Below are positions 2,806 through 62,600 of a stretch of DNA of 64,000 nt, in pieces. The notes under the pieces are model-generated. The model was not told where the DNA came from, did no database searches, and saw only the letters and a program-made list of their open reading frames with translations. The position numbers and the translations under genes are program-made. Origin of the DNA: Octopus vulgaris (Eukaryota); assembly GCA_951406725.2 (NCBI GenBank), contig OX597819.1, positions 75,330,001-75,394,000 of the forward strand, in the 5' to 3' direction. Position 1 is the first letter of the stretch; each line of letters begins with the position of its first letter.

Positions 2806-3486
2806 CTAAAGCATCAAGAATAATTTGCTTTTTGATTATTTCTTAACATTAATATTATTATATACAGAATCTCAAGTTTCATAAATTCTAATTTGGATAG
2901 CTAGAAAAATCAGTGGGGCACTGGACAAAACAACTTGCAGTATTTAGTCACCTTTGTGTCCCAAGCTGAAATGCTACCAAGGTAAACCTCACTTTTCATC
3001 CTTCTGGTCTTTATAACATAAGTACCAGGAATATACTGGAAACATTGTTGACCTTGTGCATATGCTTAACAACTATTATTAAAACTATAAATGAGGATAA
3101 CGGCAAATGAAAAAGTAAAGGACCAAATGCTTTATGACATTAGGACACATCTCTAGGGCATGGCTGTGTAGTTAAGACATACATTCTGAAGCCATAAACC
3201 CAGTTTGGGAGATGGAACTTGCATGGCAGTCTTTTATACAAGGGTGAGTCAGAAAGTAATGCAGTTTTTATTTGTATTACCTTTTGACTCAACTATGTAG
3301 ATATGAGGGAGAATATCCTTAGTTTAGAAGTACTCAATCATGTTTGATTTATTTTTTGATCCTTGGTTTAACAATTTTTATTCTAATAATTTTTACACTT
3401 TATATAATAACAAAAAATATTAGAATAACAATTGTGAAACCAAGAACCAAAAAATAAATGAAACATGATTGAATACCTCTACACTA

Positions 3487-11035: not shown

Positions 11036-11870
11036 AGGGGCAGGATCTTTTCCTTTTGAACGGCAGTTTTCAACACAATTTCTAGTTAACTAAACACTTT
11101 TAAACTTCGTATACTGGTAGAATGTGTCAAAATAAAACATTTTTTTCTCTTGGCTTTCTTGAGGAAAATTGTAAGTTGTAAGTTTAACGTAGTTTAATTT
11201 TTCGAATTTTAACCAATCCTATGGCCTCTATTGAGCTAAAATCATTTGCTGCGTCGGATCTTTCAGATAACATCCTGTCATTAACCCTAACCCTAAATTT
11301 TAGTCTTTCGTTTTTTTTTTCTTAATTGTTAAATTGATTTAAGGATAACAATTAAGAAAAAAAAAAAAAAAAAACGAAAGCAATGGAAAATAATTTTAAT
11401 TTAACAATTAAGAAAAAAAAAAACGAAAGCAAAAACTCAAAACAAAAACAAAACGAATAATTTTAGACACACGCGTAAGAATTAAATTAATTTAACAATT
11501 AAGAAAAAAAACAAAACGAAAGGCTAAAATTTAGGGTTAGGGTTAAGGTTAGTGACAGGATGTTGTCTCAGTTTTAGACGCAGCAAATCATTTTAGCTCA
11601 ATAGAGGCCATAGGATGTTAGGGTTAGGGTTAAGGTTAATGACAGGATGTTGTCTCAGTTTTAGACGCAGCAAATGATTTTAGCTCAATAGAGGCCATAG
11701 GATTGATTAAAATTCGAAAAATTAAACTACGTTAAACTTACAACTTACAATTTTCTCAAGAAAGCCAAGAGAAAAAAATGTTTTATTTTATTTATACGAA
11801 GTTTAAAAGTGTTTAGTTAACTAGAAATTGTGTTGAAAACTGCCGTTCAAAAGGAAATGATCCTGCCCCT
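11036..11870. mobile_element. Foldback/MITE-like element with long inverted arms and internal TTAGGG-like repeats
   Basis: Ends AGGGGCAGGATC ... GATCCTGCCCCT; ~250-bp arms are reverse complements; internal taaccctaacccta and ttagggttagggtta. Confidence 0.85.
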
Positions 11871-45891: not shown

Positions 45892-48557
45892 ATTTGGTTT
45901 CCGCGGGTTTTAACTGCTTAGAAAAGAAGGACAACAGTTGCCATATACCGTCAACAAGCTGCTGTAGTACACCTCCAACTCCAGAATCGGATGCATCAAC
46001 GAGTAAACACCGTGGGGCGTCTGGTTTTGGATAAACCAACATGGTAGCGTTGGATAAACGCTTTTTTCAGAGCAGCGAAAGAGGCGAGTTGATCTTCGGT
46101 CAGTGCAATTTCCGTATTTTTGCAAGTTCGCTGACGTAGCAAAGCCGTGAGCGGTTGCGCTATCTCAGCGAAGTGGGGTACGAACCGTCGATAGAAATTC
46201 ACTAGACCGAGATATTCCCTTAATTTGCGGAGAGATGTGGGTGGTGGAAAATCCATGAAGGCCTTGACTTTCTCGGGAAGGGGACGAATTCCATCCTTAT
46301 CAACGATGTGTCCGAGAAAATGAAGGGAAGCAACTCCGAACGAACATTTACTGGGGTTGATAACAACACCGTATTTGCGGAGGCGTTCGAATAGCAGGTG
46401 AAGGTGTTGGTTATGTTCCTCGTCTGAGTTACTGGCCATGAGCATGTTGTCTATGTAGGCATAGACGAAAGGCAAACCTCTAGTCACCATGTCGATAAAC
46501 ATTTGGAATGTCTGTGCCGCGTTGCGTAAACCGAAAGGCATATGCAGGAATTCAAACATTCCGAAGGGTGTAGTAACTGCTGTCTTCGAGATGTCCACAG
46601 GTTCCACTGGGATTTGGTTGTATGCTTGCACAAGGTCGATTTTGGAAAAGATGCGAGCTCGAAAAGTCTTGAAGAAAGGGCACCGGATAGGCATCACTGA
46701 TAGTACTTTTATTCAGCGATCGATAATCGCCGCAAACCTGCCAATCGGTCGATGATTTTTTGGGAACGTAGTGTCTCGGCGAGGACCAGTTGCTGCTGGA
46801 AGGGCGGATGATTCCAAGGTCGAGCATGTGCTGGAATTCCCGCTTGACGGCCTTAAGGCGATCAGGTGGTGGCCTTCTGGGTCTTGCAGCAACAGGTGGA
46901 CAGCTGGTTTTGATGTGGTGGGTAACGTCATGCTTGATCGGCTGGTTGTAGAATACTGGTCGAGCGACGTCTGGATATTCATTCAGGATGGAACTGTGAC
47001 GAGTCGTTGTTTGTAAGCATTACAGTTGGGCTGACTGTGTCCATTCGAGCGGCTATACCGCGCACAGTAAGCTTGGTGGTGGTGGTGTCGACAAGTCGTC
47101 TGTTCTTTATGTCTACCAGGAGACCGAAATGATGCAAGAAATTGGCTCCTAAGATAGGGGTCGGCAGTTTAGCGACGACGAATACCCACTGAAATGTGTG
47201 GCGTAGTCCTAAGTTCAATGTTAGGGACTGTTCACCGTAGGTTGGAATGGGTGAATGGTTGACTGCCTGAAGACAGACTGATGTCTCTTTTCTTTTTCTA
47301 GAAGTGTTGGAGACTGGGATGATGCTGACTTCCGCACCGGTGTCAACCAGGAAACGCGTGCCTGTTACTCGATCGCAAACGTAAAACAGGCAACTGTGTG
47401 CGTGCGAGCCAGGAACTTCCGTCGCGTTCAATTCCTGGCTGTGCCGTTTCCCGAACTGGGTGAGGAAAACGAGCACGGTACCGTACATTTTTGTGCCCGT
47501 GTTCCGAATGTTCGGTGGTACCAACACGTGTCATGTGAGTTGCAGGTAACACTGGGGCTTCGGGACCGTCTGCCATCTCGTCACGATTGGCTGGTGCTTC
47601 GACGCTGGGGACTAAGCTTTAGGGCCTGCATTTGGGCTGTGAGGATCTGTATTTGAGCAGCTTGCTGCATCATTAATGCACGCAAGTCCGAAATCTCGGA
47701 AGAACTGGTTTATGCATGGAAAGGATTGGTACTGGGAGCGGCTGGCGTCACCGTCGATACCGTTGGATATTTGTGCAGTACTTCGGCTATTTTGTCAGCT
47801 AGCTCCGCCAGTTCTTCAATGGGTGTATTTTCTCTGGTAGAAGCGAGAACAACCTGGGTATTGGAGGGCAGACGCTGGAGAAAAAGCTGCTTTAATATTT
47901 TTTCTGGGAGGCTTTCATCTCCGAGAAGCTGTTTCATTCTACGAAGAAGCTGGGACGGCGTTTTGTCACACAATTCTTCCGATATCAGAAGCTGTTGCGA
48001 TTCGGAGGTTCTGTTTATCAGCGTGATTTTAAAAACTTCGTACGAAACAGAACCGGGTGGTGCCATGATAAGATCACGGATAACGTTTGTTATTTCTGGC
48101 GACAGAGAACCGATAACATGCGAAAGTCGAGACGCATCGCTCAGTATTCTGTGAGAGGTAAACTGTGCCTCTATATGGTAAAACTATAATGCAGGGTCGT
48201 GGGTCCAGAATGGTGGAATTTTCAAAGAAATCGCCGCTTGGAATGCCATGTCGATCGGAGGTATGATGTTGGCCGCTGGATTCTGTTCCGGGAGGTCCAT
48301 TGTTTTCGTCGGAATTTTCAGGTGCTTCGTTGCCGGGTGATGTGCAAACTGGTTCCGGGGAAGGCGCAATTCGTTTTACGGGGTCACCAAATGTAGTGGA
48401 TGTGTGTGTGTATTAATAAATATTTAAGTTGTTTCGTAATTAAATAGGGATGTCCTGTGTCGGTGGTGATTGTTGTGGGTGTGCCAAAACGCGAGACCTA
48501 TTGTGATATCAGCGTTTTGGCGACCATTTTTGCCGAGGTGATCAATCAATTATTGAC
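45890..48557 (-). mobile_element. Ty3/Gypsy LTR retrotransposon, 5' part (LTR remnant, PBS, gag, protease, RT, start of RNase H)
   Basis: KIPPFW, LFLQRLP (gag); FLVDTGAEVS; [31 protein letters not shown] end ...CTACA at 48392 is followed by TT-TGGTGACCCC. Confidence 0.93.
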
Positions 48558-51500
48558 AGATGTCTTGCAAACAACTTGCACATGCAAGTGCTACCAGTTA
48601 AAAGCTCTGTAAACCGGAAGCTAGCAAGTTTATGGGGTCATCAGGAGAGAATGCGCGCCGTTTCGGGGCCTACCTCTCGACGGCATTAATGCGCACCGGC
48701 CCCCCCTCACTGATATGAGGCCCCGCTTGCTAGATCAGTTGGTTATGAAGAATTCAATATACTTCTAGCCATCGCTCATCGTTTCTTTTTAAGCAAATTT
48801 AGTGGCTAGCCTTCTCCACTGTAGATTGGATATCAGTCATGGTGGTATTGACTTTACGATGAGTTAGACCTTGTGATAACAACAGTCGTCTCACGCTGTG
48901 TCCAACAAACCCTCTACATCCGACTTCAATAGGAAAATGTTCCGCTTTCCAGCCTGCGTCTTCACATTCCTCGAGGAGGTTTTCATAACGGTTCAGTTTT
49001 CGAGCCCGAGCGGCGTCCATATTATCTTCATGAGGAACCGTTAGCTCGACTATATTTACAACTTTCTTTCTTTCACACCACATCAAAATATCTGTTTTTT
49101 CGAAACTGGGATGGGAAAGAAAACCTGGCACCCAGGTAAATCTGCAGTTACCTCCCAATAGCCGTTCTACTTTTCATTTTTCTCAGGAAGTTTCTTGATC
49201 TTCTTCTTGAAACGGATCCGCTGACCTGGTCGCACGAAGGTAATGAAATTTCTTGATGGTACTTTCAACGATTTTTCAGTGTAGTTGAGATGAATTTGGT
49301 TCTTTATAGCATTGAAGATAACCTTAAGGACCAAGTTGTGTCTATGTGTACGTGTTCAATGCTAATGAACAGTTGGAAAGAATATGTTTTAGTGTACCGA
49401 CCTTTCCACATTTGCAGATGTCATTCTCTAAGACGTTCCATCTTACTAGATTCGTAGGTGATGGCAAAACATCATAAGATGAACGAATCAGGAAACTCAG
49501 CCGAGATGTCGTCCACTTCCACATCTCATCCCAACTTATCTTCCTCTCAACAACATGTTCTTCCCATCTCGTCATCTGACCTTGATGAACACATCGGATC
49601 AAATGAAGCTCTCTTCTCTCTGCTTCTCTTGTTTTGACGCTGTTGCTAACAACAGATCTGCGTTCACTCGGCATCGTGCTTGCAAACGGTCTGAACTGAT
49701 CTGCGCCAAAGCCAAGTCCTTTCCGATGGTTCTGTGTCGCTCCCACCATATCTCTGTGTATAAGAGAAGACAAGATGTCGTCAGTTTCTGCTTCTGCTTT
49801 CCATTTCCTGGCTGTTTTCACCTCTGGTGGGTTACGCCTGATTTCCATATCCTTCGATTCTCTCAGCATCATGACCGTCCGTATCTTCCCCAGCTTATAT
49901 ATTTCGACTATTGATGCTATTGGTAGCTGCAACGAACCTCTTTTACGATAAAGAGCTGAGCTGTTCAACTTACGAGGTAGGCCTAGCCACTTTCTAATGA
50001 ACACATTACATTTTTGTTCAATCCTTTCAACTCGTGACAATGCTACTTCGTATATTAAAAGTGGCCACGCAAGTCGCGGGTACAAGCCGAACTGCAAGCA
50101 CCAAATTTTATATTTACCTGGTAACTTCGAATTATCAATCGCTGATAACCCAGCCTCGGCCTGTTTCATAATTTCAATCCCACGACTTCTGTCTGACAAT
50201 GTTCCAGCGTATACTCGACCCAAGCTCTTGACGGGCTCTTCCTTGACTGTTGGAATGCTTTCTTCAGATATTCGAAACTTAAATTCTTTCTGCACTCCCT
50301 TAACAAATGTCAGACTACGCGACTTTTTTGCTCTAAATCGCATCCTTGACCACCTCACAAATTCATCTAATCTCAAGAGGGCATTCTGCATGATTTGTTT
50401 ATCTGTAGCTAGAAGTGTAACGTCATCCATGAAGGCTTTCTTAGGCGATTTGTTCCGAAAAATCTACATCTTTCAAAATCATCTCCATGACTAAGATAAA
50501 CCACGTGACAGATATTGTACAGCCAGCAGCAATGCCAATCTCCAATTGGTGCCAATCTGTTGTAAAATTTCCAGTTGTAAACCTCATTTCGAAACTGTCA
50601 TAGTACATCCTCATTATTTTGATCACTTTGTCAGGAATGTGGAAGTGGTCCATGGTTGTTATTAGTAATTTGTGTGGCACTGAACCATACGCGTTAGCTA
50701 GGTCGAGCCATACCACGTTTAGACTTTTCTTGTTCTGTTTGGCATCCTGGATCACTTTCCAAATCGAAAAACAGTGTTCAACGCATCCAGGGATCCCGAG
50801 GATTCCGGCCTTTTGAACAGATTCATCAACATATCCATTTTTCTGTAAATATGACACTGCTCTCCTCGACAGAATTCCCATAAAGATCTTGCCTTCCACA
50901 TTCAATAAGGATATCGGCCTAAATTGTTTTATGGTCTTTGCATTGGCCTCTTTCAGCAGGTATATACCTTCTGCCTTACACCAATCCTCTACTATAGTCT
51001 CCTCGCGCCACAGTTGTCGGAGTAGGATGAAGAGCTTCTTTCGCAGACGATTGCAGTACTTGTAGACTTTATATGAGACGCCATCACCTCCTGGGGCACT
51101 CTTTGCTCTAGCTTTTCTTACGAAGTCATTCACCTCTCTCTCCCTGATGTCCCCAATCTGGAATTCGATATCAGGTCCTGAGAGATGATTTAGCCCATGT
51201 AGAGGTGGCAGCGGCTGGTTATGGTGCGGATCGCTGTAGGTTTCCTTGATATGAGCATCCAATTCTTCTTTAGTGCACAATAAAGTACCACTCTTCGGTT
51301 CAGTGAACAGCTTCTTAGTAAACCTGTACAGGTCCTTCAGAAACTGCCCCTGAGTCCTTTTACTTTCTTTTCAACGCTCATATCGGCGGATATGTCGTTG
51401 CACATAATGACATTTCCTCTTCAAATCGTTATACAGCAGCGCAAGGCCAGGTTTCTCATCTAGTGCAGCACATCTCCATCGCTTTCTTAAGTCGGACTTT

Positions 51501-52253
51501 TCCTTCCTCAACTGCTGCATTTTTCTGATCCTCCTGCTTGGTCCACACTTTCCTTTCTCTAGTCGGATATTCTCTTTTATTCCAAATAAATCTTTTCCTA
51601 TATCGTATATTGAGCTTGATAATTTACCCAGTTTCTCCACTGTAGAGCCTGTCATTTTATAAAGAGCCCGACAAACCTTGTTTTCAAACTCTTTATATTT
51701 CACTTTCTCATTAGCAGCAGGCCACAAAACTCTCGGTTTCCTCTGAGTATTATCCAATGCACCAGTTTCATGACTTGTAGTTTCATCACGTGAAGAGGTC
51801 TCTGCTGTAGCATTTATCGATCCGCTGTGGTTTGAGTCCGGGGATGATTTGCCACGTGTTTTACGATCTGACGATCCACACTGCTCTGTCCTCTTCTCAC
51901 AAGTCTTTCCCTGATGTATCTTCAAGCCTCTCACAGTTGCAAAGGTTCTATAACACAGCTTGCATCCAAAGTTGTTTGCATTTCGTTCGCTGTTCGAATG
52001 AATAATCATATTCGTTTCCAAGGTCATTCCCGTGCTGACTGGGTTTGATTGATTCTTGACTCTCCTCTCTCGGTCAATCGTGGGGCTGTCATTTCCAGTT
52101 ATTTCCGTTACAATATATTACAGAGGCAAGGATTGTAAGTCCGCAGCCTCCGCCAGTCTTTCCTATTGTCCGCTCGTCTTTCCGAGCAGTCCTCTTGTCT
52201 TTCCAAGATGCCTGTCTTTCCGGTTTGTCAGTGGTTACCTACCACAAGGTCTT
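48558..52253 (-). mobile_element. Hero/R2-like non-LTR retrotransposon with restriction-like endonuclease, apparently full length, several stops and frameshifts
   Basis: N-terminal finger CKLC...RGLKIHQGK; FRPISLLNVEGK, WLDLANAYGSVPH, GIAAGCTIS, AFMDD; CKC...LKHILSNC; DI...IVELTVPHED...PIEVGCRGF. Confidence 0.9.
48621..48733 (-). ncRNA. Putative rearranged hammerhead ribozyme, copy A
   Basis: gccg-UC-gagag ... ggcccc-GAAA-cggc ... cucuc-CUGAUGA-cccc, enclosed by cuagcaag/cuugcuag. Confidence 0.65.
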
Positions 52254-52866
52254 AGATGTCTTGCAAACAACTTGCACATGCAAGTGCTACCAGTTAAACG
52301 CTCCGTATACCGGAAGCTAGCAAGTGTATGGGGTCATCAGGAAAGAATGCGCGCCGTTTCGAGGCCTACTTCTCGACGGCATCAATGCGCACCGGCCCCC
52401 CTTACTGATATGAGGCCCCGCTTGCTAGATCAGCTGGTTATGAAGAACTCAATATACTTTTAGCTATCGCTCATCGTCTCTTTTTAACCAAATCCAGTGG
52501 CTAGCCTTCTCCACTGTAGATTGGATATCAGTCATGGTGGTATTGACTTTACGATGAGTTAGGCCTAGCGATAACAACAGTCGTCTCACGCTGTGTCCAA
52601 CAAACCCTCTACATCCGACTTCGATAGGAAAATGTTCCGCTTTCCAGCGTGGAGGTTTTCATAACGGTTCAATTTTTGAGCCCGAGCGGCGTCCATATTA
52701 TCTTCATGAGGAACCGTTAGCTCGACTATATTTACAACTTTCTTTCTTTCACACCACATCAAAATATCTGGTTTTTTCGAAACTGGGATGGGAAAGAAAA
52801 CCTGGCACCCTGGTAAATCTGTAGTTACCTCCCAATAGCCATTCTACTTTTCATTTTTTTCAGGAA
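52254..52866 (-). repeat. Second copy of the Hero-like 3' end (RLE and 3' UTR), fused directly to the 5' end of the full element
   Basis: Direct repeat of 48558-49189 with scattered substitutions and a short deletion at ~52648. Confidence 0.92.
52317..52428 (-). ncRNA. Putative rearranged hammerhead ribozyme, copy B
   Basis: Same core: GUC, GAAA and CUGAUGA unchanged; two stem changes are G-U tolerant and one is a mismatch. Confidence 0.6.
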
Positions 52867-54749
52867 ATCTTTTTTCGCCCCTGTTGATCGTCGTGGTTTG
52901 GATGACCGAGAATTCTTGGATTCGGTTTTGAATCTAGGCTCAGAGGAGGAAGTGTTAATTCTTACACCTCCATTAATTCTCTCCTTCATCTGAACAGTTG
53001 GGAAGGAGTTGGTGAAACTGCTTCTGTTTGGATGTAAGTTTGTCATAAAATTTCTGCTTTCATACTTTGATAAGATGTGAATTTGAAATGGCTAGTAATC
53101 AAATCTTTGACTTCACACTGACTAAAAGGTGAAATTGGCATGTATCTGAAAAAGTTTTATATCCTATGAAATTTGCTTTGAGCTGAGAAAACTAAATTGA
53201 AGTATTTCTAGTATATGGAGGTGAAATGAAGGACAGGGCAGCTTGAATAGTTAAACTATTGGTATTTTCAGAAGAAACAGATGGTACAGATGAAGTTGCT
53301 AATGAAACAGAAATTAGTTGAAATCATGCAAATGAAAGGATATGAAACGATACAATAATGGCTGTTATAGTGAGCTTGAAGTTCAGGATCAACTTCACTC
53401 TGAAATTGGCTGCCAACTGGGTGAACCATACCAATGCATCTCTGGTCCAGAAAGGGATGGAATAGGACAATGCAGCCTGCCATATATGGGCTTCCATTAT
53501 CCCTTGTGGACAGAGCCAAAGCAGGTGGTGTCAGCATCTTGTAGCAAAAATAATTTTCACTTCCACAGACAAAAGTTAAATACGAATTGTTACTGCAACC
53601 ATGCTCAGAAAGTGCTGAAAGAAATTTGTTTTGATAGTGTGAATTAGGAAAAATAAACGGCCTTTATACATTACTGGTGTTGATCAGGTTGAATTTAAGC
53701 AAAAGAAAGCTTGACATTGTAAAGGTTAGATGCTTTTGCTTCAAAGGGCTGCTTTCCAATTGGTCCTGGTGGGTTGTTGCTTTTATAACTACAAAAGCAC
53801 AGGCACGTTTAGAACCTTGTAGAATGTCCTACTATATGGCATGATACTTCTGCTGGCCAGTTGGTTAATAACCAGGACACATCACCTGACTTGAGTGTGG
53901 TCTTATACTGGTAACTGAAACTAATGTTTTGATTAGTATTCTAGGACTGTTAGAAGCATTATCTGTATTAATGTAGCATTGTTTTATTGGTTTAAAATGA
54001 AGGAGGCAATGCTTTTATTTCTAAAAAACAGTATGAAGACGTATGAACGTCCACCAATGGAAAGACAGTTCATATTCATTAAGAGCACTCTGGGTATAAT
54101 CGTAGAATTGAAAAATGGGATTTCGATGGGGAATATTGTTGAGGACTCTAAAAAAAAAAAAAAAATTTTTAAACCTGCAGAAAGATAGTTTAAACCAAAA
54201 AAGGCAGACTGTAAACTCACATTTGCAATAGTGTATGAAATTAGAATTCACACCCAACTCAGTTTTGTAAAAACAGTATCGCGTCGTGATACAGAGGTTA
54301 TATGGTGACACATGCCAGTCCTTTCGACACCACCTAAACTTGAAAAAAACCCAATGAAACAGTATATAAATGTAAAAAGTAATTAACAACTTACTCACTT
54401 TATGAACGTCTTATGTTGGCGAAGAAACAATTACTTTACAAAACCGTTCAATGGAGACATAGAAGGAATCGGAAAATGAGGAAAAAAAGAGACGAATGAG
54501 TAGGATCAAATGTTTGCAAACATCTTAACCCGATCTTTATGAACTATGTTCTTTTTAATGGCTGTATTTTCAAGAATGAAGAGGTAATCAAGAGGTGCAG
54601 AAGAAAAACTCTAGCAAAGACTCATGACTCACAATCAATCTTGTTTTGCCAGAGCCTCCTGATAAACTACGTTCCTTGTGCGCTCATGTTCTCCAAGAAT
54701 GAAGAGGTTATACGGATTTCCAACTCAAGAACAGGTTACGTACAATTGA

Positions 54750-56605
54750 TCATGACTGAAGACCGGTTGTGACAGGTTCACGCCTACAATGTCCAGTGAT
54801 TGTCCCTGTGACTTGTTGATGGTCATCGCAAAGTGTAGTTTTTTCCAAAATTGATAGCGTTTAACCTGAATGGGAATATCAGAGGGTGAAATACTCGTTT
54901 TTTATGTATCATCTTCATTGTTCCTATGAATGGGCCACTCAAAATTTCAGCAGTTATAACATGGCTTTGAATCCTTATAACCATTCGGGTTCCATTGCAT
55001 ATTTCAGGCATTTCCGTATTTCTGAGCACCATGATTGGACCACCTACTTTCAAACACAAATGATGAGGTGGAAGCCCTGGAGGTGTTAGCTTGTTGAGTT
55101 GTTCGGGTGGATATTTGACTGCATCATTCTCATCTTTATTTATATCGATGAACATGAAAAAGACTTCCTCACCAGGAATCATATCAAGCAGTTGTTTATT
55201 AGTAGCATCAGCTGTTGTTTTTGGAAGTTGGTTTTGACGTCAGGAAAAATGGCTCTTATAAGGTCTTCTACATTTGGAACGAAATTCCCCAAAAGGCAAC
55301 TAAAAATGCTCGTCATCAACCAAAGGCAAAACTCCATCACCAAGATCTAATAGCTGTTTTGCGAACGCTTCAGACTCCACATCACCACGTAGGTGGACTC
55401 TCATGTTTGTTTCAAAATGATGACTGATTACACTGTGCCACGCATAAGAATGCTTTATACATGAATTAACCTCATCGGCTCGAGTGCCTCTTGGGACAAC
55501 AAGAAGGGTTAGTCGAAAATCTCCTGCCATGAGAAACGCAGCTCTACCCATTATTCTTGTATTGTGATACAAATCTTGGAGAGTTCTGTCAAAAGCCTCA
55601 AACATGACCTTATTACTTATTGTAGCCTCATCCCAAATAAAAAGACTGCAATCACAAAGAAGTCTTGCTCTGGAGGAACTACGATCTATATTACATGTAG
55701 GATTATCTTTTTTTTTCATTGTCCACAAGCAATTTGAATGCACAATGTGCTGTATGACTGCCTTGAAGTAGTGTCGCCGTGATACCAGTGGAGGCACATG
55801 TAATGGCAATTCGACGTTCAATGAGCAGTTTTGCGAGAATCAAATTGATAAGGAAAGTTTTACCAGTACCACCTGGAGCATCCAAAAAGAAAAGCTTTTC
55901 TTGGTTCAATCTAACGCTGTCAACAATTTCATTATAAATCTTTGTTCAGGCAAAAGTCTTGGTTCATCTCGCGTAATCGTTTCCGTCAATTTGGCAATGT
56001 TGTAGTTTTTTTCCGACATGTATTCAACAACCAAAGGCGCTTCATGATGGACAGGTGTTGGCAGATGGAATTCACTTAAACCACATATAACATAACGTCT
56101 GATGTGTCTGTCCATGTCGATTAATGCCTTATTATAAACATCATTGATGCCATCACGTAGCCCTAAATTAGCCTGCATGTCCTTTGACAGGCTCTGTCTG
56201 AATGAATCCTGAAGGTTAAGAAGGTTGCTGGGATTACAGTGGATTAATATGCTACAAAACAATCGACATATTTGCCATGGCATTTTACAATTTGAGGCCT
56301 CTGCCTGCATCCTGTGTAAGTGGTCGTCATCGAGAATTAGTCTGTGTCTCAAACATGCTTCTTTGTAAGTGTCGCAGATGACACCATCAACCATGCGAGG
56401 ATCAGCAAAAGACTTCGGGCCAGTAACTACATGAAGCAGCATTCTCAAAAAGAAGAGTTCCTGTTTGGGTGTGTGTGTAATATTCATCCTATCAATGACA
56501 TTCTTCCTAGAAACACCGGGCCAGTTGTCAAGTTCTGTTCCATGTGACCTGTGCTTCCATTTATTGTTGTTGTATGTGTAATATTCTAATACTTCAGGGT
56601 AAATG
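54750..56605 (-). mobile_element. Helitron RepHel, PIF1-like helicase region, degenerate
   Basis: ELFFLRMLL.VV.GP.SF, FFLDAPGGTGKTFL, FIWDEA, AGDFR, GLPPH.L.LKVG.PIM.LRN...CNGTR, TINKSQGQSL. Confidence 0.9.
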
Positions 56606-56656
56606 AGAAGCAGTGTATTTTATATATATATATATACATATATATATGTTTGTATG

Positions 56657-56699: not shown

Positions 56700-59600
56700 G
56701 AAGTTTGAAAACACCACTATATTAGATAAATTTTAATTTTCTTATGAATTTAACATGTTTCGGTTCTTGAAAAAACGAACCTTATCAAAAATATTATAAA
56801 AAGTGCAATAGAAAAGAAACAATAATGGACTTCTTCACTACACTCAACAGTAATATAGCGATTATACCAACTACCGACAAAACACCACCACATGGATTCT
56901 ATTGAGACCAGTAAGAAACGATTATGAACTTTTCTATTGCATACATATACAATACATACATACATCCATACATGCTCATATGTGCATGCATGTGCATTAA
57001 AAAATTTTTTTATATAGCACCACACACGCACATACGTATCAAACATCGTACGCTCATTCGGTTATATATAACTGCACATAAGTGTTTTAACACCACACAT
57101 TGCAACATGTATGTAAGGATTACATGTAAACGAGAGAGAGGGTGGTTATAGAATGGTCCTACTGAATGGGATCTGGGAGTTACTCCATTCGGATTTTCGG
57201 TTGAGAGTAGGTTTGTATTCTTGTATACAAACAGCTTCTGTGATCTGTCTCAACATTGCATTGGTGGGATGTGTTGATAGGATGTTTCCCTAAGGATCCC
57301 TTGTGGCAGTCTACAGCATATTGGTAGAAGATGGAGTTTGGCTTCATTTCAATGTAGTTGTCCAGATGTTCTTTGAACCTATCATTGATACTCTTAGAAG
57401 TCTCACCTATGTATGACTCTGGGTTAGTCGCGCAATCTCCTTCTTGGCACTCAATTTGGTATACTGTGCCCTTGGTTTTTCAGTTTACATGTGGGTTTGT
57501 CGAACATACTGCACAGTTACTTTGACAGGTGATTCTATCAAATGGATATGATCTGCATAATGCCGACTTGATAGTCCTACCTGTCTTTTCTACAACTTTG
57601 ATTTTAAGGCCAGTAGTGCGCAGGATTTTCTTGAATGCCTTACTTAGCTCGTTCTTAGGTGTGGCGTCAACGAACATTACCCCGTGAAATTTCCTGTTAT
57701 CATACGAAGTATCGTTTCTCATCCTTTTGTTGGTGTCTCTCTCTAACCTATTCCAGAACTTGTTGCTGTATAGGGGGCATATACCGTTTTCGTCGTCCCT
57801 TAGCATGCGTTCGAATCTTGCTTTCGCTCTCTTGTACACTCTGACTCTATCGTCTTGTGTGTATCCAGAGCGTTGCATTCGGAATATGTAGTACTGGATG
57901 TGTTGTTGTTGTTCTTGTAGTTGGCATAGTGGGGATACATTCCTCATTACTCTGCCACTAGGATGTTGAGTTTGGTAGTATTCGACATAGCTGTGTCACT
58001 ACGGATTACTAGTGGATTAGCCATCAGTTTCTGATAGTGTGAGTAGAGTATACAGGGTTTAACGGTTCCATTAATCATAGCATCTTCTATCCATAGCTCA
58101 ATATCTAGGACGGGTAATCGTTTAGAGGGGTAGTCTATGGTAACTTTTATACTGCTGTGGATAAAGTCAGCTATGTGTTGTATAGATGTCATCACCTGTT
58201 CTTCATTTAGTAGAGAGCCCATAACTGTGTCTGTATTATAACATTTCACGACAAGGTTAATGTCGTCGATGTTGTAGTGAGTGTGTGCGATTTGAATATA
58301 GAGGCACCTACCTTCTCTTCGTGGTGACGGAGATCCTCCAGAGATGGCTGGTCCTTCCTCACAGCCCTACCCGAACACTAACAATAGCAGCTGCTAGCCC
58401 CAAACCCTTTAGCGACTTCCTCGCACATCTTGTCGCCAGCACGACCCACGTTGGAAAGGTCAACTTCCGCCCCCTGCGCACGCTTGACGGCTGACCCCTT
58501 CCGCTTGCCCCAGCTTCCGGTCAACGCACCCCGCTGCTGACGTCCGGCTGCTGACATCATCCCACACGCCACCCTGATCTTAATGATCACAATCTCTCCG
58601 CTCCATGTTGTAGTCTACCATCCAACCGGGAGAGCGCCTTGCTCGTCGAGATCTTCTCAAGCTGGGCTCCTCATTCTCCCCCTCTCCCGAATCATCGTCC
58701 GTCGAAGCAACAATCCTGCGAAGGTCCAAGACATGTCGTGGTGTGCCATCTGCGGATACGTTGCCTCTGGAATTGATCGCCGTCACCGTTCCTCTGCTCC
58801 ATTGAGACGTACAGCGCGCCTTTGGTGGCTTGACCCAGACCTCCTCCCCTATTTTCACGCGAACGGGTCCCTTCTCTTCCTCGTGACCCTCCAGCGCTTT
58901 GCTCGGGTGCCTCCATTCATATTTGAACACAGCTCTCTGCGGCACAGATTCCTCAGCCTGTCCGGATCGGGGAGACAAGTTGTAACAAAAAACTGCTTCA
59001 AGCGGCGAAATGTGCCCTCTTTCCGCTATGGCCTTGACTGTCCGATGGTGCCTCTCCACGATCCCGTTACCGCCCGGCCTATACGCTGCTCTGAACAAGC
59101 GTCGCACGTTCCACCGATCAAACATAACCCTCAATGCTTCCGAACGAAACGCCGCCCCGTTGTCCATCTGTAGTTCTTCCACGGGACCTCTCTCTAAAAA
59201 TATCCCGTTCAGGATCTGCACGATCTCGTCAGCAATGCCCGATCTCAACTCCTCCAAATGGCCAGCCGGCCCGGCCCACAGTCGACCATGGAGAGGTACA
59301 TTCGCTGACGGTAGTGTGTCACATCCACAGCTAGCCTTTTCCAGTTCTGCTCCACGGAAAGGCTTCCCTGTTCATGCCCACACGGAGCAAGGTCGATGGA
59401 CTGACACCTGTCGCAGCTCCCGACCACCTTCCGGACGCTTCTCCTGGTGACGTCAGCATCAATTTTTTTTGCCAGATACAGGGTCCTGTCCACACCCAGG
59501 TGATGCATAGCGTGCAGTTTCTTCAGTTCAGAGTCATCCAACCGACATGCCACAGCTATCCCTTTCCGAGCCTCCTCCGGTTCTTCACCCTGGTCAGTAC

Positions 59601-62600
59601 GTCCGCCTTGTTTTTCTCCGAAGGCACGAAGACCACGTTCAGGTTCAGTCCGAATTTGGCGATCAGTTCACCTAGAACTCCTAGACGGCGCTTCACTAAC
59701 ATCTCCGCAGCACCTTTCGTCCGCACTCTCCTGTCACCGGTGATCACCGATCCTACCCAGCCAAGCACAGTGGCCGAATCCGTCCGCATTTCAATCGTGC
59801 GCAGCCCCCATTTCAAGGCCAAGTTCACCCCTTTCAGCAGCGCGTCTAATTTGGCGACATTGATGTGGTTGAAATCATCTGCTTTCCGAAGCCAGGCCGC
59901 GTCCTCCACCGCAGTGCCTTCGATTGCCAACACCACCCCTATCGCTATACTGCTAGCATCACACCAGACGGTCCCGCATTTCGTCTTGGGCACGTACCAG
60001 TTCCCCCTGACCGGGTCTTCCGCTCTTGTCCTCTCTAGGATCTCCTGCATCATCGCCACCGTCCCTTCTCCCACCTTGTCGCCCCACCTCTCTCCTTCTG
60101 CTCGTCTCTTGGTGTAACTACACGCCGTGCGCAGCCATCCAGCGATCGGGTAGTGACCGACCAACTTCCCACACACCGAGAACAGCTCTCTCCTGCTGAC
60201 GCTGGAACTCAGCTCTGGGATTTCATTTCCTCTCCGGAACACCAATTCACCTGACCTATCTCTTTGCAGCTTCAGCCCCAGTGCGGCTCCCCCTTCAATC
60301 GACTCCGGTGGCTTAGCAATCAGTCCGAACTTCTCCAGATGTCTCACTACCTCGTTGGCTGGCACTACAGTTTCGTCCACCAAAATGTCATCAATGTAGG
60401 AGCTGGTGGCCTTTCTAATCTTGCCGTCTTTCCCTAGGACGGACCTAAGCACTGCCGCCATGATCTTCGGAGCGGAATTCAGCCCGAAACCCAGCCTGGT
60501 TAGACAGTACGTCCGGCCCTTGTACCGCACCAGCTGATATCGCCATAGTTTGTCGCTCACATGGAGCTGCAAGTATGCCGATCTCAAGTCGACAATCGTC
60601 GCTGCCTCAGTCGACTGTCTCCACTTACGTAATGCCTCACCACAAACGTCTGTCGCCTCACCTCCTGTGTGACACGATATGTGCTGGTTTAGCTCCCTGA
60701 AGTCCAGCACCGGTCTGACTTTTCCCTTCGTAGGCTGCACCACCGCCATCAGGGGTAGCACTCCGCCCGCTACCTCCTCCTTCCAAGGGACAAGGACCCC
60801 TTCCTCGATCCACCTCTCCACCTCGTCTTCAAACTCAACCCTGGCGTGGCCTTTCAGGGTATGCTGGTAACAGCTCACCCTGTTCTCCAGTGTCGGGGGC
60901 TCGTCCTTCCATTTCCACTCTATCGTCCACCGCTGACCATCGAACACCGCCTGAAAGTCTTTGTCCTCGATGGTGTAAGCGGCGCAGTCCCTCGCGGGGC
61001 TCTGCTCCCTCTGGCGATCCTGACTCGCAGTGCACGACGCCCCCACGCTTCCGAACGTGACCTCATTTCCCACAACACTGACGCCACCGAGGCAGTTGAT
61101 GGTGTCCATCCCCATCACCACATCAACTCCATTTATCACGCGTTCGGCCACAATTGCCTGTAGCCTTAGCGTCGCGCCGCGCACCACTATCTCTACCTTG
61201 CTGCTGCCTCTGCAACGGATTTCGCTGCCGTCGACCGCCCGGACACTACACACCCCGTTCCATTCCTTCGTCACCCTCGAAGTCACCAGGGTGGTCGTAC
61301 AGCCCGTATCCACAAGGGCCTTGAACGTCTCCCCCTCGGCCTCCACGTCAATCAATGGCAGCGTCTCCAATAGCACCTCTACTCGTTTGAGGGGAAAGTT
61401 CGAGAGGCAGCAACTTCCCCGCGGTCGTTTCCCTGGCCGCAATCACGGGCAATGTGCCCTGTCTGCCTGCATCGATAGCAAACGGGCCCCGGCTGCGTAC
61501 AGTCCCGCGCCATGTGCGGTGCCTGTTATCTAAAACACTGTCCTGAGAACGGCCGCTCTCGTTGCACGGTGGGCTTCTGTACCTCTTTCTCGGGACGTCG
61601 TCCGTCTTTACACGCCTCCGTCACCGCCATCGCTATCGCCTTCCGCCCAGAGTGTCTCGTCAACCCGCGAGCATGAGTTACAAGTTCGCTCAATGGCATC
61701 TTTTTGACCCCGGGCAGTCATTGTAGGTGAATCCCTACATCATCGGGGAACCCATTCACGAACGCCAGTCGGGCTGTTCTCTCCAGTCTTTCTCCGGCAA
61801 ACCCGGCCAGAGTCGCTAGCCTTCTAGCTTCCGATGCAAAATCATCCACCTGGCCTCCTGTCCACCTGATTGCACCTAGCTTAGCGAAAGCTGTGTACTC
61901 GCATTCCGTGTATGTGTCACACAAGCGCCGCTCTATATTCTCATCGCAGAGCCGTTCTTCTTCATCCATCTCTACGTAAAGCGACAACGCACTCCCTTCC
62001 AAATACAGCGCCATAAGACTCGCCACGTCGCTTTTGCCCTGCAGTCTCGCCACCAGCCTGATTTTCTGAATCCAGGCCACTACATCGCCTTCGCCGTTAA
62101 AAGGTCTGACAACGTCACTGGCGATCCTAATTTTTGCAGACATCGTGTTGAAAAAAAATGTGAATGTTTACGAACTTCCGAAATAGCTTGTAGTGAGTGT
62201 GTGCGATTTGAATATAGAGGCACCTACCTTCTCTTCGTGGTGATGGAGATCCTCCAGAGATGGCTGGTCCTTCCTCACAGCCCTACCCGAACACTAACAA
62301 TAGCAGCTGCTAGCCCCAAACCCTTTAGCGACTTCCTCGCACGTCTTGTCGCCAGCACGACCCACGTTGGAAAGGTCAACTTCCGCCCCCTGCGCACGCT
62401 TGACGGCTGACCCCTTCCGCTTGCCCCAGCTTCCGGTCAACGCACCCCGCTGCTGACGTCATCCCACAGATGTAACGAGAGTACATTGCTAAGTGGATGT
62501 TACGGGTTGCTAGGCACTGTATAAAATGTCTGTCCCACCATACCATGAAGAGGTTTGCAACGTCACCGGCGATCCCTACTCCAAATAGCACTGCCTTTCG

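Follow-up and report, generated by a model that had tools for sequence, protein, structure and literature searches.

Background

Retrotransposons without long terminal repeats (non-LTR elements) are assumed to use linear RNA as template and to begin copying at its 3' end. We analysed a 64,000-nt stretch of the Octopus vulgaris genome (assembly GCA_951406725.2, contig OX597819.1, positions 75,330,001 to 75,394,000; hereafter the window), whose minus strand holds, at 48558 to 52866, one decayed copy of a young non-LTR family. Its 3.7-kb unit encodes a zinc finger, a reverse transcriptase (RT) and a restriction-like endonuclease (RLE), and it carries hammerhead ribozyme motifs of unusual strand order. 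On balance, the sequence data lead us to favour the view that a whole R2-related, autonomous clade replicates via a 3.7-kb protein-coding circular RNA, generated by a hammerhead of a seventh topology, with rolling reverse transcription remaking LTR-like repeats at each cycle.

R2 and the other RLE clades, including HERO, have one open reading frame (ORF) with the order zinc finger, RT, CCHC knuckle and RLE, as has the present element; the accessible parts of the three sources concerned mention HERO without a ribozyme (PMC7650587, PMC4640811, PMC13580325). R2 carries a 5' ribozyme resembling that of hepatitis delta virus (HDV), which defines where its linear RNA begins, and copying of this RNA proceeds from the 3' end; the element described here, in contrast, has its ribozyme in the 3' untranslated region (UTR) and no fixed 5' end. 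HDV-like and twister ribozymes are those given for elements of the long interspersed nuclear element (LINE) type in the available sections of PMC7761336 and bioRxiv 10.64898/2026.07.22.740005. Penelope-like elements share with our family the partial-tandem, pseudo-LTR copies, a hammerhead within the repeat and internal initiation by the RT (PMC11167929, PMC7761336), but they have minimal type I hammerheads and encode a telomerase-like RT with a GIY-YIG nuclease, which this element does not have; a circular template is not discussed in the accessible portion of PMC11167929. Retrozymes are likewise cleaved by hammerheads and circularised, and in the published model cDNA longer than one unit is made from the circle (PMC7761336, bioRxiv 10.64898/2026.07.22.740005), but they are short, non-coding and non-autonomous and have type I or III hammerheads, whereas the 3.7-kb unit encodes its own RT and RLE. 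No connection of HERO or RLE elements with hammerheads or circles was found in the literature searched, Repbase Reports, subscription papers and bioRxiv supplements being outside its reach.

Concerning the ribozyme itself, Eckert et al. defined six hammerhead permutations in 2023 (PMC10085705), assuming that CUGAnGA cannot be separated from its stem II strand. The S-G-C order (cleavage site, GAAA, CUGAnGA) was reported there only from metatranscriptomes and metagenomes, and the genomes of known organisms contributed a single bacterial GCS candidate, as far as the accessible text goes.

Features of the element and its genomic copies

The single ORF (48754..52238, minus strand, as are all element features below) comprises an N-terminal zinc finger, RT, CCHC knuckle and RLE; the knuckle and nuclease motifs were read by eye in the translation and are presumably correctly labelled. 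It is decayed into four pieces by stops, frameshifts and small deletions. Younger copies retain an open frame of 1175 aa (several between 1100 and 1175 aa), and one of them, L064, with a 3738-nt unit and a 1175-aa frame, was used as reference. R2 proteins were the best matches among solved structures (E 4e-45), and the only named homologues were uncharacterised proteins of Branchiostoma and Aplysia. A single ORF with RT, CCHC knuckle and C-terminal nuclease, 5'-truncated copies and the lack of LTRs are those of RLE-type non-LTR elements. The name Hero, or HERO, is applied to it provisionally.

Two direct repeats, 92.3% identical, flank the unit. The upstream one (52254..52866) is a 5'-truncated duplicate of the element's own 3' end, consisting of the endonuclease-coding tail and the 3' UTR, and joins the 5' UTR seamlessly; the downstream one (48558..49189) includes the true 3' end of the insertion at 48558, without poly(A). 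They agree at 16 of 16 subfamily-diagnostic sites. Each contains the ribozyme motif (52317..52428 and 48621..48733), with C17 at 52375 and 48679. Cleavage is predicted between 52375 and 52374 in the upstream copy, and the predicted cut-to-cut monomer (48679..52374) is 3696 nt long and may be circularised. Just 3' of the putative start of reverse transcription lie four hairpins with GAAAGA loops, about 20 nt apart (52150..52227); younger copies have five, and hairpins of this type occupy the corresponding position in 10 homologous loci, against a background of 0.16 per 400 nt. They are a candidate binding site that could position the element protein beside the start on a circle.

In the 2.8-Gb genome, the element's 3' end has about 2170 candidate matches (40 scored) and its 5' UTR about 70. 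At 33 loci, 3' ends fell between -3 and +5 of one site (mode -2, in 17) and lacked poly(A), and in a second set of 40 entries they reached as far as +8, into the 5' UTR (two loci lacked the motif). This common site lies 121 nt downstream of the predicted cut and is the head-to-tail junction of the window copy (52253..52254), which may mark an internal start of reverse transcription. The 3' flanks were frequently (AT)n-rich and in other cases unique, a likeness to the loose or microsatellite targeting of HERO (PMC4640811). Only one candidate target duplication was seen among 33 loci outside microsatellites. At the reference locus (L064:2919-8327), the empty site is present in contigs of three runs and includes 32 letters missing from the filled locus; L064 is a polymorphic insertion with a target deletion, not a duplication.

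Twenty copies selected by C-terminus and long frame were all 5'-truncated, none of them reaching the junction. When loci were fetched by the 5' UTR alone, 30 of 30 continued upstream into their own 3' end, as did five of six additional loci, the sixth beginning at +10. Removal of one duplicate left 35 distinct near-full-length insertions, with four other scored 5' UTR matches outside this count. Their run-on measured 8 to 1976 nt; 26 pass the cut and nine stop short of it, none stopping 10 nt or less from it, and 22 of the 35 possess a whole 5' ribozyme. Neither a copy starting at +1 without an upstream repeat nor a locus with two full units was present among those examined. The 5' ends also form small clusters at unit positions +16 to +58, -26, -243 and -369, with differing flanks; these clusters are possible RT pause sites, one of them at the first GAAAGA hairpin.

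The element had been described in an earlier note as a retrotransposon bracketed by repeats of about 620 bp, whose cleavage would release a unit-length RNA of about 3.7 kb. The repeat is indeed no one-off of this locus and its length there is as given, but it is not a fixed bracket, since it differs in length at every locus; similarly, the unit length holds (3696 nt), but a linear working template is not supported, because insertions read through the cut (see below). Fixed pseudo-LTRs releasing a linear unit-length RNA that serves from its 3' end as template for target-primed reverse transcription (TPRT) would account for where the cut lies and how long the unit is. The ends of copies, however, lie 121 nt beyond the cut rather than at it, and the repeat varies as widely as stated, which makes such a scheme scarcely credible. 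Run-on past the start and the 3 to 8 nt by which some 3' ends overlap the 5' UTR are equally out of keeping with priming at the 3' end of a linear RNA that has a defined 5' end.

The upstream and downstream repeats of the same locus were compared at 15 loci, leaving out copies below 92% identity, repeats below 80 nt and one locus with too few sites. They differed at only 6 of 248 diagnostic sites, and none of 50,000 random pairings was as good; raw repeat distances were noisier at old loci. Because own repeats match in this way, the upstream repeat appears to be remade from the same haplotype at each insertion, as in LTRs, although its length is variable. Independent second insertions into the 5' end of an existing copy, either one-off or self-targeting, find a possible example in a homologous metagenome contig (L176:85-7266), where two family members of 68% identity stand head to tail, each carrying a ribozyme of its own. 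However, the haplotype test largely refutes this origin, as repeats match their own locus rather than random copies. Moreover, the junctions lack the ragged ends typical of true 3' ends, and no examined copy begins at +1 without a repeat, so that second insertions are very improbable.

The same results bear on a template of uncut read-through RNA, transcribed from a tandem or partial-tandem source and initiated internally as in Penelope, with a ribozyme that is slow or otherwise employed. Penelope itself provides a precedent (PMC11167929), published S-G-C hammerheads are slow (0.007 to 0.19 per min, PMC10085705), and the 28 to 31 unscored candidate 5' UTR loci could hide an array. On the other hand, no two-unit array occurred among the loci examined, daughters with similar 5' ends have differing flanks, and an upstream repeat inherited in this way could only shrink and drift, yet its haplotypes are shared with the downstream repeat in several subfamilies. 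We consider this explanation quite unlikely.

Recurrent internal deletions were observed in ten copies (L217, L218, L222, L224, L227, L229, L069, L028, L214 and L219), most of them spanning unit positions from about 680-850 to about 3110-3440; their breakpoints vary and show some microhomology. What remains are retrozyme-like units of about 1.1 kb that keep ribozyme, hairpins and run-on. Splicing was rejected as their source for want of GT donors, as was a long-range duplex, none being unusual.

Insertions starting at the predicted cleavage site

The position of the cut, proposed in the earlier note, was predicted before truncations were counted. A first pattern targeting copies that differ at two bases before the cut gave nine matches, seven of which begin exactly at the cut, six of these being 121-nt stubs. 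An unbiased pattern across a 45-nt span then retrieved 68 loci, of which 37 are 5' truncations within the span, while in the remaining 31 element sequence continues upstream or the start falls outside it. Eleven of the 37 begin exactly at the cut (binomial p 3e-10), the next highest position having four. The span test was used in place of a two-base control pattern at -99, which returned two unverified matches. Such truncations are expected if an RT runs off a cleaved 5' end, and they are indirect evidence that the motif cuts in vivo. Exact read-through of the cut gave 481 matches in a partial capture.

A linear monomer would yield stubs, because the start of reverse transcription is only 121 nt from its 5' end. 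Since insertions terminate 121 nt downstream of the cut and continue across it, cut-to-cut RNA can deliver the ORF only by ligation or by a template jump. The RT of R2 is able to jump between template ends. Without ligation, an RT that starts 121 nt inside the 5' terminus of a linear monomer would run off at the cut and jump to a 3' terminus, either of that monomer or of a sister molecule, mimicking a circle. Stubs would then be failed jumps, and shared haplotypes and variable run-on would follow as well; template switching is frequent, and one stub (L370) is fused to a piece of the ORF. Nevertheless, a base-exact jump would be needed for every ORF-bearing copy, and no indel was found at the cut in 31 aligned copies. 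The 481 exact read-throughs, partially captured as they are, face only 11 stubs, and none of 26 insertions stops at the second crossing. This leaves the jump a conceivable but unlikely substitute for ligation.

Architecture of the hammerhead motif

Both motifs of the window read as first quoted, and the core of the second copy is unchanged, although three helix positions differ, in hairpin H, stem I and the stem II strand. In the 3' copy, a helix strand P0 (48733-48721) is followed by hairpin H (48720-48705), by a strand X (48703-48698) and by a bridging helix with stem III (48696-48680). C17 (48679) of the UH site precedes stem I (48678-48674), and a short linker leads to the stem II strand (48670-48665) and GAAA (48664-48661). 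The second strands of stem III, the bridge and stem I (48649-48645) come next, then CUGAUGA (48644-48638; CUGANGA in the family) and the 3' strand of P0 (48637-48621). X pairs with the strand before GAAA, P0' begins directly after A9, and hairpin H sits between P0 and X, mostly without an unpaired base. CUGANGA, GAAA and NUH are all present with stems I and III.

The structure was scored on a plain MAFFT alignment of 24 homologue sequences, from which L202 was excluded because its P0 and H are weak. Over stems I, III, X:pre-GAAA, P0 and H, 87% of cells were paired, with double-sided changes at 24 of the 26 pairs of the four-way-junction structure; the paired fraction fell to 34-44% when strands were slid and was also far lower in shuffles. 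The counts for stems I, III and X are partly circular, because the aligned rows were chosen by a descriptor requiring these stems. The first pair of X (10.1:11.1, purine:pyrimidine, closing stem II beside G12) is G-C in 23 of 24 sequences and is supplied by the upstream strand. A canonical stem II was rejected, its 10.1-11.1 pair occurring in 0 of 24 and its pairing of 41.7% being at shuffle level. Outside the alignment, the X helix was found in eight of 12 further stretches; one lacked the 5' part, two deviated and one had no motif. In L161, L171 and L173, C3-G8 has become U3-A8 by a double change that keeps a core tertiary pair described in PMC11300833. Single-sequence folding recovered P0, H and the stem III arm and missed the pseudoknots, and RNAalifold recovered stem III only.

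These covariations argue that G10.1 comes from the upstream strand via a perfect four-way junction and that A9 is not followed by a stem II strand; catalysis by this form is a prediction. The resulting topology, doubly pseudoknotted and with stem II split over the four-way junction, would be a seventh one. The suggestion in the earlier note that either strand of stem II finds a partner in a G-run further upstream is borne out by the covarying X and P0 helices, and the covariation among homologues that it called for is likewise found. Its remark that the fold may not be new applies to the S-G-C order, which has been published, though not from animals, and there stem II forms directly (PMC10085705). 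Type-SGC and type-CSG hammerheads of that report share with ours the short linker between stems I and II, the invariant core and a helix that connects these two stems at their far ends. In type-SGC the strand after CUGAnGA pairs with the one before GAAA, which occurs here in none of the 24 sequences, where a four-way junction is found instead. The pseudoknot hammerhead of Zhan et al. (2024, PMC11300833) is similar in that a third-strand helix replaces helix II while the core stays active; it retains a local A9-G10.1-C11.1-G12 stem, its connectivity is different, and no retroelement is reported in the accessible part of that work.

Distribution of the motif among homologues

A protein search yielded 673 relatives, many on contigs of 3.5 to 4.5 kb, and a metagenome scan 80 homologous loci, of which 32 with an ORF end and at least 230 nt beyond it were scorable. 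The strict S-G-C descriptor matched the sense strand of 24 of these 32, in accordance with the block order first noted, and about six of the remaining eight have the motif by eye. It lies 1.5 to 2.5 kb beyond the ORF in L136, L201 and L202. All main branches of the homologue RT tree (49 rows) bear the motif; the two 3' UTRs without a hammerhead core (L134 and L178) are nested among motif-bearing branches. Several homologous contigs continue past the ribozyme into hairpins and ORF, or show terminal redundancy.

The descriptor matched none of the 80 antisense strands and nothing in 1.4 Mb of Markov-resampled homologue sequence. A covariance model of the motif, with a copy of the family in its training set, matched the 64-kb window at the two ribozyme sites only, and Rfam gave no match between 47000 and 54000. 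Viral contigs produced one distant protein match; the core pattern gave 122 loci in about one ninth of that collection, among them a single weak descriptor match and no four-way junction. In prokaryote genomes there were seven matches, and none of the five searched with the model matched it. The motif is real and common across the clade, and such a hammerhead topology in an RLE retrotransposon whose copies show the marks of a circular template is apparently undescribed.

Proposed replication cycle

Taken together, the end distributions and covariation suggest that the hammerhead probably cuts unit RNA from a partial-tandem locus, and that ligation probably turns this RNA into a circle, on which the RT starts internally and goes round more than once. 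Any locus whose upstream repeat measures at least about 180 nt would be transcribed through both ribozymes, each predicted to cut after NUH, as insertions starting exactly there support. A host ligase or the ribozyme itself may then circularise the 3.7-kb monomer. The element protein, probably placed by the GAAAGA hairpins, would use nicked, AT-rich DNA to prime cDNA synthesis at one constant position, 121 nt beyond the cut, where copies are observed to end. Copying of the ORF must involve crossing of the cut by the RT, and an upstream repeat must result from passage of its own start and often of the cut again. Having crossed the sealed cut, the RT would stop at random, leaving most copies 5'-truncated, and in a few per cent finish the round and continue, giving the observed variable repeat. 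Unsealed RNA would give the 121-nt stubs. Owing to the start beyond the ribozyme, each new copy would keep a whole 3' ribozyme and run-on copies could gain a second.

A ligated circle would give all of the fixed 3' ends, the lack of a fixed 5' end, the variable run-on, the identical repeats and the ribozyme-sparing start. Sequence patterns, covariation and end distributions are the observations behind this cycle, from which we infer cleavage chemistry, ligation, priming and the role of the hairpins.

Several points weigh against the circle or its ribozyme. Once sealed, a circle again contains the ribozyme and might be recut, and the 121-nt stubs could come from cut read-through RNA of ordinary copies. 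The RT switches templates often (about 10 internal microhomology jumps), which helps the explanation by jumping. Seven of 40 5' UTR matches begin at +16 to +58 without reaching the junction, two of the 32 scorable homologues have no hammerhead core, and no hammerhead with A9 detached from G10.1 was found in the literature searched. A Penelope element used mainly uncut RNA as its substrate in vitro, and none of the reads ended at the cut, according to the accessible part of PMC11167929.

Other features of the window

The element is inserted in the 5' LTR of a decayed Gypsy-like LTR retrotransposon (45900-48557 and 52867-52967, minus strand), with LTR-like sequence flanking the insertion on both sides and gag-like, protease and RT remnants below 48200. 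Another pair of direct repeats (58272-58544 and 62188-62460; 273 nt, 99% identical, 3916 apart) possibly represents the LTRs of another young element. Near-perfect inverted repeats at 11036-11870 and 1482-2415, with arms of 78 to 242 nt, resemble miniature inverted-repeat transposable elements. Frames at 54823-56619 (minus strand) look by eye like a helicase that we take to be of Helitron type.

Implications

The wiring of the element's self-cutting motif is apparently a form not found in the literature searched. It contradicts the stated assumption on hammerhead connectivity, places a non-circularly ordered hammerhead in chromosomal DNA, and offers a case in which insertion ends suffice to locate a cut made in vivo. 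Gene insertion based on R2 might also profit from a stable circular template on which copying starts at a fixed internal position. If the circle is true, it provides a testable answer to the origin of partial-tandem pseudo-LTRs, a question still open for Penelope, and a clade using it would join LINE-type TPRT with a retrozyme- or viroid-like life cycle.

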